A DNA stretch of 64,000 nt from Escherichia coli O157:H7 (GCF_013167455.1 NZ_CP038328.1), one strand, 5' to 3'. Counted from the stretch's first letter, positions 28,172 to 32,529 are shown. Program-made: numbers and translations. Notes: generated from the sequence alone by a model not told the origin.

Positions 28172-28458
28172 AGAATGCCTTTCTCCCTCCAGATTTCCTG
28201 TGTGCGGAAAACGCCCTCCGCGTGCATCAGGCGCAATTCTTCTTTGGTGTAATCGCTGGTTTTTACCCGCCCGTCGATTAAATCGTGGCACGAGCTACAG
28301 GCAATTGCCGCCTGCATATCGTGTGGTTTTGTCGCTGTTCCACACGTCCCCGCCAGCCTGTAATGCGCCAGCACGGACGTTTCGGGATTGTGATTGCAGT
28401 AGCCAGGAATTCTGACTGTACACATCTGACCTTTTGCCGCTTTACGTAAATCCACCAT
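28168..28458 (-). CDS. YbcO-like Cys-rich protein (DUF1364, putative nuclease)
   Basis: 96 aa with Cys clusters (RIPGYCNHNPETSVLAHYRLAGTCGT...IACSSCHDLIDGR) resembling DLP12 YbcO as recalled. Confidence 0.5.
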   Translation of the reverse strand: MVDLRKAAKGQMCTVRIPGYCNHNPETSVLAHYRLAGTCGTATKPHDMQAAIACSSCHDLIDGRVKTSDYTKEELRLMHAEGVFRTQEIWREKGIL

Positions 28459-29057
28459 TACGCAAACTCCAGTAGCTGCGCGGCCACATTTTCGACTTGT
28501 TCCGGAGAGGAAAATTTACGGAACAGGATCCAGTTCCACAGTACATTCAGCACAGATTTATAAACCTGCTGAAACTCGGTTTCGTCCATATTCGCAAACG
28601 CGATGGATTTCGCCCTGCGCCCACGGCTACCGTCCGGATAAAAATGCTCGGTGTAAAATCCGGCCTGAATGGTTACCCACTCGCGGAAAGCCTCAAACGA
28701 CTTTAGCAATGCCGTATCCCGGGTTCTGCGTGTCGCAACGGTATTCAGATATTGCTCTGCGGCATCACTCAGGGCTGGAGTATGTTCCCGACCTACTGAT
28801 TCGCACAGGAAATCAACGAAACCGGACACCAGTTCTCGTTCGCGAGGCGTGATCGCCCCACCGTTCGGAGTCCAGTAATCGAATCCCAGTTGCAGGAGTT
28901 TGAAAAAACGCTTGTGGAATGCGTAGTTACGCACACGCTTAAAGTCTGCGTGTATCCACTCACCGATTTTGATTTGATGCAAAAAATCGCAACTCTCCGG
29001 CGTCGCCGGGAGAAGTAATCCGGAAGAGGTTTGTTTGACCAGTTGTATATGCGCCAT
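28458..29057 (-). CDS. Hypothetical nin-region protein
   Basis: 199-aa ORF with overlapping stop/start with the ybcO-like gene. Confidence 0.45.
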   Translation of the reverse strand: MAHIQLVKQTSSGLLLPATPESCDFLHQIKIGEWIHADFKRVRNYAFHKRFFKLLQLGFDYWTPNGGAITPRERELVSGFVDFLCESVGREHTPALSDAAEQYLNTVATRRTRDTALLKSFEAFREWVTIQAGFYTEHFYPDGSRGRRAKSIAFANMDETEFQQVYKSVLNVLWNWILFRKFSSPEQVENVAAQLLEFA

Positions 29058-29128
29058 CGTAGTTCTCCGCTGGCGCAGTAGAATGGGTGTTCAGCCCGTT
29101 ATGTAGTATACCAGAATTAATGCCAATA

Positions 29129-29380
29129 CTAACAGGATGCTCTGACTCGCAATTCATCCAGCAGTTTATCATTTCCCATAATGTCACTTACCCTCATCGG
29201 TAAAAAAATTGCCTTTCGACCATTACGATACATCATTGATTTTGGGGTTTCAGGGAAGTAATCCATTTCGACTATAACTGACAGGTCATCACGACGTATG
29301 ACTGCGTATTTGCAACTAAATAGTTTCTTTATTTTTTCCACGATGCCTCCGAGTTTATAAGTACAAACGGTTATATCCAC
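29129..29380 (-). CDS. Hypothetical protein
   Basis: 83-aa ORF in an AT-rich segment; no motif. Confidence 0.3.
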   Translation of the reverse strand: MDITVCTYKLGGIVEKIKKLFSCKYAVIRRDDLSVIVEMDYFPETPKSMMYRNGRKAIFLPMRVSDIMGNDKLLDELRVRASC

Positions 29381-29526
29381 ATAGAGACAAAAATATTAAT
29401 CTGAAAAATATTTATTTCACGCCGTATATTTGATTATTTAATGTGCAGGTACAATGACTTTTATTTTTTGTTGTGTATATAATCAAATATATGGTTATTT
29501 TTCACCCTGCGCATTCAGCGCGCAAC

Positions 29527-29548
29527 AAAAAACCCGCCGAAGCGGGTT
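29527..29548 (-). terminator. Intrinsic terminator ending the hok mRNA
   Basis: Hairpin aacccgccgaagcgggtt with T-run on the minus strand, about 70 nt after the hok stop. Confidence 0.6.
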
Positions 29549-29616
29549 AAGTGCGGGTGCGTTGAGGATGCCTGACACATCAGAGGTGGCGAGGGATTTC
29601 TCCCCCGCCAGGTCTC

Positions 29617-29772: not shown

Positions 29773-29951
29773 AGCCTGCTTCTCCTTGCCTTTCGGCACG
29801 TAAGAGGCTAACCTACGTTTGTGAAGCATAGATTGGGCCTCAGATTAATGTTAAGCGTCTTGCAGGACGCGTAATGTTAACTGGGGCTTTTCTCTATCTG
29901 CCTTTTGGTGTTCATGCCTGAGGCAGATAGCCTCAAGCACCCATTATGATT

Positions 29952-31073
29952 TTAACCAAAGTCTTTGTATCTATAAAGAGGCACAATATTACTCGATATA
30001 TCATCATGTGTGCGCCTTATTCCAAACATTTTGGAAACAAAGCGTTCCCTCACTCCCGACATATCCAGTATCTGCTTCCAAGAAGATATATCCAGCAATT
30101 CAACTGCACAGGAAAGTAAGCGAGGTTTTTCCTCAGGGATTAACTCATCCCCCATCTCTCCTTTAATCGTCCCTCTTTTATTTAGATGGATAAATCCCGT
30201 TCTCATTTGTTGTGGCGTAATCAGCCCCAAAACCGTAGCACGATAAATACACATGCGAAGACTGATTTTCCATCGTTCTTTGAAATTAATTAGTGCATTC
30301 CAGTCAAGATGCGATCCTCGCATTTTAGGAAATTCATTAACGAACGAAACTCTAGGTACAAGGAATGCGCTCGAAAAATAATCCGCATGATGTTCTGTAA
30401 TTTTATCCCCTGTTATAATCCCTTCATGCAAAACAAGATGCCCCAGTTCATGACCGAGATCTGAGCGAAATCGACACACACTCTTTTTCGCGGAATTTCT
30501 AATTATCAATGGGCGTTTACTATTAATAGTAAACGCATCAATACGATCATCCACGCCAGATACATGAGCAACAACAACCCCAATACTTTCCACGAAATTA
30601 ACCATTGAAGATATCGGTCCCAGCCCCAAACCCCAATACCTTCTACAGGCCTCGGCAATTCTTTCAATATCTTCATCGGAGTTCAAAGGTAATCCGGACG
30701 TATCAGGAAAGTTCAATTCTGGAAGAACTATTTCTGTTTCCAAACACTTTACAAACTGCTCCAAAATTTCAGCTCGAGCCAGAATACTATTAGTTAAGGA
30801 CTGCGTCCTTGATCTCTTGCTTCTGAAATGGCAGTTCTCGCTGTCTAATGGTGATTTCCTTCCAGTGAAGAAAAACGACTCTTTAACATCCAGATAATCT
30901 GCAAGAGCTGTCAACATCTGAGATGAAGGGGGATAACCACGCTCTAACTTGTTTATAAATTGCCGAGTCACCCCCAAAGCAGTAGCAAGCTCTTCGCCCG
31001 TAACCCCTTTAGCCTGACGAGCTAATTTTAAGCAGTCACCACGATAATTACCTATAGAATCAAATAGTTCCAT
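29952..31073 (-). CDS. HTH_XRE DNA-binding domain fused to ImmA/IrrE-family (M78) zinc metallopeptidase
   Basis: N-terminal HTH (LARQAKGVTGEELATALGVTRQFINKLERG) and HEXXH site (LGHELGHLVLHE); start ambiguous between 31073 and 31109; AT-rich. Confidence 0.7.
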   Translation of the reverse strand: MELFDSIGNYRGDCLKLARQAKGVTGEELATALGVTRQFINKLERGYPPSSQMLTALADYLDVKESFFFTGRKSPLDSENCHFRSKRSRTQSLTNSILARAEILEQFVKCLETEIVLPELNFPDTSGLPLNSDEDIERIAEACRRYWGLGLGPISSMVNFVESIGVVVAHVSGVDDRIDAFTINSKRPLIIRNSAKKSVCRFRSDLGHELGHLVLHEGIITGDKITEHHADYFSSAFLVPRVSFVNEFPKMRGSHLDWNALINFKERWKISLRMCIYRATVLGLITPQQMRTGFIHLNKRGTIKGEMGDELIPEEKPRLLSCAVELLDISSWKQILDMSGVRERFVSKMFGIRRTHDDISSNIVPLYRYKDFG

Positions 31074-31710
31074 ATTTATCACTATCTGCTTTTTTCGCAT
31101 TCTTAACACGCCGCTGCAAATTCAGCGGTGGTGTTTCCACGGCCTCTGGCAATACGTCAGTATTAGCTGCTTGTACTGGAGCATGGACTTTAGACACCAA
31201 TTCGTATCTACTCACTACATTATTTGATGAATCAAAACCTATCAGGGCTAAAAGCCACGTTGGAGGTTCAATATCTTCATCTTTTTTATTTGCAGATGGT
31301 AATTTTTCAGCCAGAACACGCCATGTAACATCATGTTCAAAATTAACATCATCTTCAAAAAGAGATAACTGACGACACTCAACATCATTTTTACATAAGC
31401 GATGTTTCTTTTTTGGTGAATCCAGTTTATCGGTCACAAACTGTAACGGCACCCTGTTCAGGGTAAACACAAAATTCAGAGGTGTTGAAAGAATCGCCAC
31501 TCCTTTGAGTTTTTTATGATTTTTTACAAGAAAGTTTTTTATCCATCCATAGGCCCTACATCCATTAATCCAGTTATCATCATACTCATGGCGATGGAAC
31601 CATAATTCGCCAAGTACGTTAGCAAATTGCTGAAGAAGATTGATAACAGATTTTTCATCCAAACAAGGATTGATTTCAAAACACGGTTGGAGATTCTGTT
31701 CAGACGGCAT
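31060..31710 (-). CDS. Uncharacterised protein, upstream partner of the HTH-peptidase gene
   Basis: 216 aa from Met MPSEQNLQPC... with RBS GAGGG; stop overlaps the next gene start; no motif recognised. Confidence 0.5.
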   Translation of the reverse strand: MPSEQNLQPCFEINPCLDEKSVINLLQQFANVLGELWFHRHEYDDNWINGCRAYGWIKNFLVKNHKKLKGVAILSTPLNFVFTLNRVPLQFVTDKLDSPKKKHRLCKNDVECRQLSLFEDDVNFEHDVTWRVLAEKLPSANKKDEDIEPPTWLLALIGFDSSNNVVSRYELVSKVHAPVQAANTDVLPEAVETPPLNLQRRVKNAKKADSDKYGTI

Positions 31711-31864
31711 AAGGTATCCCTCTCTCTTAAAACTCCGCTCATCTTTACGCAAAATTTTATTTTTGTAAACCTAATCTTTAGGGGATTTCACGAATTCGTC
31801 AACCAGTCGAACAAACTTTAACCACAATACATATTTATCTACATTGATATGTGTATCGCTAACA

Positions 31865-32095
31865 CTATTGTGGGCATTCAGCTAGTATTACCAAGCCTTC
31901 AGGTGCGCGAAGTTGTTCCGCACAGTGCAGCAGCGCATCAGTCGCTTCCTTAAGCGTCACAGTGTCGCCATCACCCAGTCCTGCAATTTTTGCGTGCCTG
32001 ACAAACGCCGCGCAAAGGTCGTTAAACGCCCCTGCCCGCACATCCGCCAGGAAAGCGTTGGCAGCAGCCAAATCCTGGTAGTCAATCCCGCTCAC
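31865..32095 (-). CDS. Hypothetical small protein
   Basis: 76-aa ORF with start/stop overlap to the upstream gene. Confidence 0.35.
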   Translation of the reverse strand: MSGIDYQDLAAANAFLADVRAGAFNDLCAAFVRHAKIAGLGDGDTVTLKEATDALLHCAEQLRAPEGLVILAECPQ

Positions 32096-32529
32096 TGTGC
32101 CACCTCCTGAAAATTACCCTGATAAAACGCCAGTGCGCGCTGCATAACTTCGCTCTTCCGGCACTCGCTACAGATTATGTTCTGACGCCTGTCGTAGCGG
32201 CGTATTTCTCCGTCTGGTAATGACCAGATAAGGTCCGGATCATCCACAGATGTTTTCTTCAGATTTGCCCTTGAGAGTTTTTTGCGGGCGTTTTGCCAGT
32301 CCTTACGCGCCTGTTCAGACGGGAATAACCCGTAACCAGAGTTGTATACATCGCCACTGGCAACCAGCTCTCTGGCGAGAACACTCATCAGATATCTTGT
32401 CGCACCTGTTTTCTCTTCCAGTTGCCGTAACGTCTCGCGGCCGCTCAGACGTACAAGTTCAACAACCTGCCCTTTAATTTTTTCCCGCTCTTCTGGTGTA
32501 AATACTTTTGCCATGGGCGCCTCCGGCAA
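32092..32529 (-). CDS. Hypothetical protein
   Basis: 145-aa ORF downstream of the ydaW-like gene. Confidence 0.45.
   Translation of the reverse strand: MPEAPMAKVFTPEEREKIKGQVVELVRLSGRETLRQLEEKTGATRYLMSVLARELVASGDVYNSGYGLFPSEQARKDWQNARKKLSRANLKKTSVDDPDLIWSLPDGEIRRYDRRQNIICSECRKSEVMQRALAFYQGNFQEVAQ

Follow-up and report, generated by a model that had tools for sequence, protein, structure and literature searches.

We analysed a 64,000-nucleotide (nt) stretch of one strand of Escherichia coli O157:H7 DNA (GCF_013167455.1, NZ_CP038328.1; hereafter the window) and followed up four small open reading frames (ORFs) in the nin region of its lambdoid prophage, at 28458..29057, 29129..29380, 31865..32095 and 32092..32529. 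The best overall explanation, which we hold to be probable, is that these ORFs are genes of a Rac-type backbone: a homologue of lambda Ren, an internally deleted Ead gene, the NinB/Orf-like protein IrsA, and a gene of 70 amino acids (aa) that is a candidate antirepressor. On this explanation the four ORFs would be part of the conserved early-right ("nin") backbone of the prophage, not cargo. The finding is mostly ordinary, with the 70-aa gene as a candidate addition to the small antirepressors of DicA-class repressors. The genes of the finding all lie on the minus strand, and all four ORFs were present where a first, sequence-only reading of the window had placed them, although two of its starts were over-extended (the likely starts are 29341 and 32514). 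The four genes, and the repressor proposed as the partner of the 70-aa protein, are as follows.

28458..29057, minus strand: irsA, encoding a DUF1367 protein of 199 aa (Pfam, PHROG, fold match)
29129..29341, minus strand: 70-aa gene (phrog_1813) with a GTG start, putative antirepressor (PHROG, slot, covariation with repressor type)
31865..32095, minus strand: in-frame internally deleted Ead/Ea22-like gene, 76 aa (tblastn and alignment)
32092..32514, minus strand: DUF977 gene, also called 'LygF', 140 aa, lambda Ren homologue (Pfam, PHROG, hhalign)
35691..36110, plus strand: prophage repressor of 139 aa, short DicA/Gifsy class, presumed target of the 70-aa protein (Pfam HTH_3 only)

The prophage in the window is Rac-type and lambdoid, and sits at the ttcA/intR site. 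The 5.8-kb region around the four ORFs is 100% identical to chromosomes of Shiga toxin-producing E. coli, for example NZ_CP027388.1, in which RefSeq annotates intR, xisR, ralR, recT, recE, kilR and a Rha-family regulator near ttcA. Because intR adjoins ttcA (42568-43803), the prophage occupies the classical Rac attachment site. Onward, the gene order is the 139-aa helix-turn-helix repressor, a cro-like gene, ydaT, an O-like gene, a DnaC-like gene, DUF1627, DUF977, a pseudogene and two further genes; hokD, the 70-aa hypothetical gene, DUF1367, DUF1364 (YbcO) and a DUF1133 Q-type antiterminator come next, followed by the lysis and structural genes.

The 70-aa gene lies in the nin region 71 nt upstream of irsA, and both rem and gftA have the same placement. 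The gene found between hok and irsA in related Rac and Qin prophages is rem, whose product was shown by experiment to be an antirepressor of DicA: a DicA-controlled promoter was derepressed 165-fold (PMC10448788). In Gifsy-2 the order is dinI, a 73-aa gene with a GTG start and then irsA, and Lemire et al. mapped an antirepressor between dinI and irsA (PMC3121763).

The repressor of the window prophage is also of the class that antirepressors act on. The 139-aa protein matched helix-turn-helix Pfam domains only, with no autocleavage domain; it aligned with DicA at 29% identity over 129 aa (expectation value, E, 2e-15) and carries a C-terminal motif, LLxLFxxLPxSE, that recurs in four other types of short repressor. 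The short DicA/Gifsy repressor class has been described as non-cleavable and antirepressor-controlled. With such a repressor, induction would need a protein that binds the repressor and removes it from its operators, and the 70-aa protein would act in this way, as Rem does on DicA and GfoA/GftA do on the Gifsy repressors.

The two genes also covary. We typed the repressor in 80 IMG/VR loci with the 70-aa gene and in 58 with Rem-like genes; 81 of the loci hold both the small gene and the repressor gene, ~6 kb apart, and in 77 of them the type of the small gene matches that of the repressor. The counts by repressor type were as follows.

70-aa gene in the slot: window-type repressor 45, DicA type 1, third type 0, fourth type 2
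Long Rem in the slot: window-type repressor 0, DicA type 26, third type 0, fourth type 1
Short Rem (57 aa) in the slot: window-type repressor 0, DicA type 0, third type (153 aa) 6, fourth type 0

After dereplication, in which loci sharing intervening genes were collapsed, 51 of 55 remained on the diagonal (chi-square p 7e-20), and none of 100,000 permutations reached the observed value. Across locus classes, hok, irsA, ydaT and the DnaC-like gene are 88-100% identical; DUF977, DUF1627 and the O-like gene range from absent to 100% within one locus class. The pairing extends to Salmonella: homologues of the 70-aa protein there (57% identity) go with a repressor and a cro that are 61-84% homologues of those in the window, with unrelated replication genes in between. 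A second subtype of the family, which differs in the C-terminal half, accompanied a fifth repressor type in each case (8 of 8 places). In a set of 5,426 complete E. coli genomes, 172 have the 70-aa gene and 152 the repressor, always as a single copy, and 4,855 have the backbone. Synteny, partner and covariation thus point to the same function for the 70-aa gene, and from the slot, the partner class and the covariation we put the chance that the 70-aa protein is the antirepressor of this prophage at about even.

Several observations weigh against an antirepressor. BLASTP of the 70-aa protein against Rem (K-12, Rac) gave no alignment, hhalign of its family against Rem or Gifsy-2 GftA reached only E 0.09-0.19 over 13-23 columns, which is not significant, and a model of the protein had no structural relative in BFVD or PDB. 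A LexA box (CTGT-N8-ACAG, at most 1 mismatch) is absent from 29342-29620 upstream of the gene, and no sense-strand sigma-70 promoter in the upstream DNA passed our scan. The prophage encodes an intact Rha-family regulator, a possible other route to induction. The pairing is broken in 4 of the 81 loci (L054, L070, L095 and L034): the fourth repressor type (139 aa) occurs twice with the 70-aa gene and once with long Rem, and the DicA type once with the 70-aa gene. These loci could be recent recombinants, or they could hold cross-acting antirepressors. Finally, the sampled loci share ancestry and cannot be taken as phylogenetically independent, and only ~6 kb separates the two genes.

Part of this evidence could instead be read to mean that the 70-aa protein is real but serves IrsA or the hok locus as an accessory or regulatory partner, its link to the repressor arising through co-inheritance of nearby DNA. 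Such a role would suit a gene that is invariably directly upstream of irsA and has no homology to known antirepressors and no LexA box; the four mismatched loci and the kinship among the sampled loci also speak for it. However, long and short Rem occupy the same slot beside near-identical hok and irsA, yet go with other repressor types; the replication and DUF977 modules in between are reshuffled within each class; and the Salmonella homologues at 57% identity are still paired with 61-84% homologues of the same repressor despite the unrelated replication genes between them. We consider a partnership with IrsA or hok unlikely, though not so unlikely as to be set aside, and return to the 70-aa protein as a candidate antirepressor.

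The 70-aa gene most likely starts at the GTG at 29341, and not where the 83-aa call of 29129..29380 would begin, because a GGAGG Shine-Dalgarno sequence lies 5 nt before this codon, RefSeq uses the same start, and the N-terminus is conserved in Salmonella and Citrobacter homologues. The protein falls into phrog_1813, a family whose function is listed as unknown (E 5.8e-33). Two rounds of homology search gathered just 57 clusters, whose members come only from E. coli, Shigella, Salmonella and Citrobacter. The gene is under purifying selection: in 25 E. coli alleles, nonsynonymous and synonymous variants, each counted per site, stand in a ratio of ~0.39. In the AF2 model (pLDDT 79), there are four strands and, at the C-terminus, a helix. 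Family members share a conserved N-terminal half (KYAVIRRDDxSVxxEMDYFPD) and have one of two unrelated C-terminal halves. The 70-aa protein may found a new sequence and fold family of small antirepressors of DicA-class prophage repressors, in which the exchangeable C-terminal half sets specificity for the repressor; lacking a LexA box, it would tie the induction of Rac-type prophages, in Shiga toxin-producing and other E. coli, to a signal other than SOS. We hold this fuller proposal tentatively, at a little less than an even chance.

In E. coli genomes, the second subtype (P0320; loci L146-L153) follows a relE-like toxin-antitoxin pair, not hok, and is itself followed by DUF968/RusA, not irsA; it always occurs with the fifth repressor type plus ydaS and ydaT. 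Two proposals about the gene were rejected. The Rac record names the slot gene 'rem', but as a Rem homologue the 70-aa gene fails on the missing alignment and the non-significant profiles; LexA control fails on the lack of a nearby box.

The idea that the 70-aa ORF is a chance reading frame, or encodes a small secreted toxin, draws on internal-start versions of 45 aa or shorter (P0015, P0016 and P0319), which bear the NCBI-derived name 'bacteriocin'. We give this hardly any credence: the start codon and Shine-Dalgarno sequence are conserved over three genera, and the substitution ratio and the model confidence reported above both argue for a genuine protein. Neither NCBIfam nor PADLOC has a model that matches the 70-aa protein, and no model or context supports 'bacteriocin'; we saw no leader peptide in the sequence, and it is flanked by hok and irsA, with no immunity or export genes beside it.

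The DNA upstream of the gene changes with it.

29342..29530, minus strand: AT-rich upstream region of the 70-aa gene, swapped along with the gene

Sequences of the 70-aa and Rem loci diverge straight after the shared hok terminator (29531-29548), and the swapped unit runs from just past this terminator to before the irsA leader. The upstream region contains a 19-nt inverted repeat (29422-29440 / 29476-29494) with arms that are 89% complementary and 35 nt between them. The sole good promoter-like site upstream of the gene, at 29454-29483, is on the opposite strand (ATGACT-18-TATAAT, 10 of 12 positions). From our reading of the alignment, the hexamers of this site are kept in Salmonella and in subtype-2 loci, in the latter of which it faces the divergent relE-like toxin-antitoxin pair.

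The second ORF of the set with a corrected start is DUF977. It most likely begins at the ATG at 32514 (140 aa), not at the TTG of the 145-aa ORF 32092..32529, because the alignments to the Pfam and PHROG profiles start only at residue 6; RefSeq uses this start too. The protein matched Pfam DUF977 (PF06163, E 7.6e-30) and was assigned to phrog_142, 'Ren-like exclusion protein' (E 6.2e-46), to which lambda Ren likewise belongs (E 1.6e-41). A profile of nine DUF977 proteins (40-87% identity) aligned by hhalign with lambda Ren (95.8%, E 7.8e-9) over 89 columns, covering Ren residues 5-93 of 96, so that the homology spans nearly all of lambda Ren. Both proteins have an N-terminal winged helix-turn-helix and a C-terminal ECRxSxxMxRxLAxY motif. 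A sequence search of the DUF977 protein against solved structures returned noise only; a winged-helix fold had earlier been assigned to DUF977 (PMC2686095). Profile comparison thus identifies the ORF as a member of a known nin/ren-region family and a homologue of lambda Ren. Ren has been described as an interaction partner of Rex proteins that is 'likely involved in DNA replication' (bioRxiv 10.1101/2021.04.19.439022), and the DUF977 protein, like lambda Ren, would probably work alongside replication proteins.

The ORF at 31865..32095 is present, but it is not the free-standing novel ORF for which it had been taken. RefSeq records it as an incomplete pseudogene, and by tblastn its 76-aa product is 60-80% identical to the C-terminal ends of proteins that carry an Ead/Ea22-like or EaE annotation. 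An alignment with relatives of full length (176-227 aa) shows that the native start, about the first 7 residues (VS.IDYQ) and about the last 65 are retained; the gene has lost an internal stretch in frame and is not truncated at the N-terminus. The product had no match in Pfam, Ead_Ea22 (PF13935) included, and does not have the full-length architecture. Its GTG start overlaps the stop codon of DUF977, and the native start of the deleted gene would be translationally coupled to DUF977. The same short allele, which has its own PHROG (phrog_27745), was also found in loci of other immunity types (L137, L122 and L056).

The fourth gene, called irsA in Rac phage records, gave a full-length match to DUF1367 (PF07105, E 2.1e-97, residues 1-198 of the 198-position profile), and its PHROG family, phrog_319, carries the label 'NinB/Orf'. 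The best fold match of IrsA was NinB/Orf, and the protein has the same fold as the solved Orf structure (PDB 1PC6). The DUF1367 family comprises 1,168 clusters (E <= 0.001) in two length classes of ~155 and ~199 aa. The longer one, to which the window protein belongs, has in addition a helix-turn-helix-like helical hairpin of ~45 aa at about residues 66-116, modelled with high confidence. DUF1367 turned up in 263 phage records, those of Vibrio, Pseudomonas, Polaribacter and Klebsiella phages among them, and in Eru1-type Stx phages the gene adjoins those for a helicase and a primase (PMC8044961). At the level of profiles, hhalign of the DUF1367 family against lambda NinB was weak (E 0.023, 25 columns); the conserved RNxxFH(R/K)xFFxLL was aligned with ERNRSLDQNRKLWACL of NinB, so that the weak alignment falls on the RNxxxxx(R/K)xx(F/W) motif of IrsA. 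BLASTP of IrsA against lambda NinB gave no alignment, and a sequence search of IrsA against solved structures found nothing.

IrsA is probably a distant recombination mediator of the NinB/Orf type. A NinB/Orf-like role would fit a prophage that carries recET: placed like NinB upstream of ybcO and Q, IrsA would most likely load or assist the RecET recombinase on single-stranded DNA coated with single-stranded DNA-binding protein (SSB). Two points count against such a role. The Pfam NinB model (PF05772) did not match IrsA at E <= 0.01, with DUF1367 alone reported; and in the Gifsy prophages, where irsA comes after dinI and the antirepressor gene and is co-transcribed with both, a non-polar irsA deletion had no effect on induction and the authors proposed a regulatory role (PMC3121763). 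Salmonella irsA itself was found through Tn10 insertions that impaired growth in host cells (PMC3121763). IrsA might accordingly be a regulator of an SOS/antirepressor module and no recombination protein at all. The co-transcription with dinI and the antirepressor gene, the conservation that led the Gifsy authors to their suggestion (PMC3121763) and the conserved elements in the irsA leader would be in keeping with this. Yet Gifsy induction was unaffected by the non-polar deletions (PMC3121763), the best fold match is NinB/Orf, and the family recurs in many Vibrio, Pseudomonas and Polaribacter phages and, in Stx phages of the Eru1 type, beside genes for a helicase and a primase (PMC8044961). 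We judge a purely regulatory IrsA improbable and prefer the recombination mediator. In DLP12 the NinB-like gene ybcN has the same place upstream of ybcO as irsA; we considered YbcN as a relative of IrsA and rejected it, since YbcN is weakly NinB-like and not a DUF1367 protein.

The leader between the 70-aa gene and irsA has the following elements.

29058..29128, minus strand: irsA spacer/leader, with a -10-like TATACT, a stem-loop GGG-CTGAACA-CCC and a GGAGA Shine-Dalgarno sequence, followed by the ATG

Loci of the 70-aa, Rem and Gifsy-2 types have the hexamer, the loop and the Shine-Dalgarno sequence in common and differ in the sequence of the stem. The stem-loop lies 6-8 nt after the hexamer with a conserved loop, CTGAAC or TTGAC (also in L088, L092, L095, L133, L137 and L154), and its stems vary by locus type in a compensatory manner (GGG/CCC, GCCAG/CTGGC, GCAGGG/CCCTGC, GCAGGA/TCCTGC and ACTGG/CCAGT). 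In the window the stem is weak (3 bp, -3.2 kcal/mol, z ~+0.4) and no stabler than in shuffled sequence. No Rfam family matched the leader.

The sequence-only reading had found no recognisable motif in the four ORFs and had placed them among the morons of a variable region. The Pfam matches to DUF1367 and DUF977 contradict the first of these statements, as does a PHROG family for each of the four. NCBIfam had no model that matched any of them. Profile and structure searches, together with comparison with related nin regions, mapped the ORFs largely to known nin housekeeping families: two belong to lambda ren/nin families, one is a remnant of an ea-region gene, and one sits in the slot of known antirepressors. 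That reading was right in calling the ORFs uncharacterised, in that no function of any of the four has been established by experiment in this prophage; their biochemical roles, above all the antirepressor activity of the 70-aa protein, are what we infer here.

Morons are indeed present in this region, as hok/sok and RosmerTA, but the four ORFs themselves are recurrent Rac/Qin/Gifsy backbone genes in fixed synteny. The actual accessory cargo nearby is hok/sok (Rfam sok, 120 bits) and RosmerTA. The latter, previously described as a 'peptidase cassette', is a toxin-antitoxin phage-defence pair (29952-31752, minus strand), in which a 385-aa XRE-M78 protein matched PADLOC RmrA (E 6.4e-107) and an overlapping upstream 230-aa protein matched RmrT (E 1.7e-18). 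The system was named in bioRxiv 10.1101/2022.05.11.491447 and PMC10440598. The RosmerTA cassette is low in guanine plus cytosine (GC, 0.36-0.44) and was found in 1 of 80 related IMG/VR loci.

Could the four ORFs nonetheless be uncharacterised moron-type cargo gathered in a variable region? DUF1367, DUF977 and phrog_1813 are still entered as 'unknown function' or DUF in Pfam and PHROG, true morons are interspersed among the four ORFs, and the GC content falls locally to 0.36-0.44. This dip, however, corresponds to the RosmerTA and 70-aa cassettes and not to irsA or DUF977, the synteny is fixed over Rac, Qin, Gifsy-2 and IMG/VR loci, and there are homology ties to lambda Ren and NinB/Orf. Family membership and synteny largely refute the moron-cargo view, which we regard as very unlikely, and favour backbone genes.

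Rfam also returned a full-length but sub-threshold isrK at 29527-29608 on the minus strand (30.5 bits against a gathering threshold of 50), covering the 3' end of the hok mRNA and the terminator. Real isrK lies downstream of antQ in Gifsy-1 (PMC4825925). We rejected the identity, the match being sub-threshold and real isrK being elsewhere, and treated it as a resemblance of two hairpins plus terminator.

Further features of the window prophage are as follows.

1-901, minus strand: two DUF1076 genes at the far prophage end
22704-23274, minus strand: frameshifted 'phage antirepressor N-terminal domain' gene in the lysis region
27407-27477, minus strand: tRNA-Met gene, directly downstream of Q
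36981-37829, plus strand: intact Rha-family regulatory protein, just past the repressor

The Rha-family regulator and the frameshifted antirepressor-domain gene are possible alternative or former players in induction. DUF1076 is a family that we take to be NleG-like type III effectors.

With these assignments, three of the four ORFs gain informative names: Ren-like, NinB/Orf-like IrsA and truncated Ead. The 70-aa gene becomes a concrete candidate for the means of inducing a Rac-type prophage whose repressor is non-cleavable. Pathogenic E. coli commonly harbour such prophages, and the one in the window carries a phage-defence cassette and, presumably, NleG-like effector genes. If the pairing rule holds, the slot upstream of irsA could predict antirepressor-repressor pairs from genome sequence, and possible cross-induction between co-resident prophages might be predictable too.

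Compared with known systems, much of this is familiar: Ren/DUF977 and IrsA/DUF1367 are described families, and the NinB/Orf-like fold of IrsA was already implied by PHROG. Lambda NinB/Orf (PF05772) and IrsA (DUF1367) are separate Pfam families, and the ~45-aa helical hairpin is an addition of IrsA. The activities that mark the lambda protein are binding to single-stranded DNA and to SSB and the replacement of RecFOR in phage recombination. The Ead/Ea22-like and EaE proteins are proteins of lambdoid and P22-like phages, of which the 76-aa ORF lacks ~100-150 central residues. DUF977 and lambda ren are alike in lying downstream of the replication genes, but lambda ren comes directly after P, whereas in the window the DUF1627 gene separates DUF977 from the DnaC-like gene. 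At 140 aa the DUF977 protein is also longer than lambda Ren (96 aa), with an insertion of ~45 aa between its two conserved parts. No Rex system is evident in the window, so the phenotype of lambda Ren, protection of the phage against exclusion by Rex, is not transferable to DUF977.

The closest counterparts of the 70-aa gene are the genes for Rem (Qin; antirepressor of DicA) and for GfoA, GftA and FsoA (Gifsy, Fels-1). A LexA box is visible upstream of dinI in the Gifsy operon, and there is none for the 70-aa gene. In other respects the systems agree. All of the proteins are small (57-86 aa), and GftA and the 70-aa gene both have a GTG start. As in those systems, the gene lies in the nin region between hok (or dinI) and irsA, its partner is a short helix-turn-helix repressor of the DicA/GfoR class that is unable to autocleave, and the type of the small gene follows the type of the repressor.

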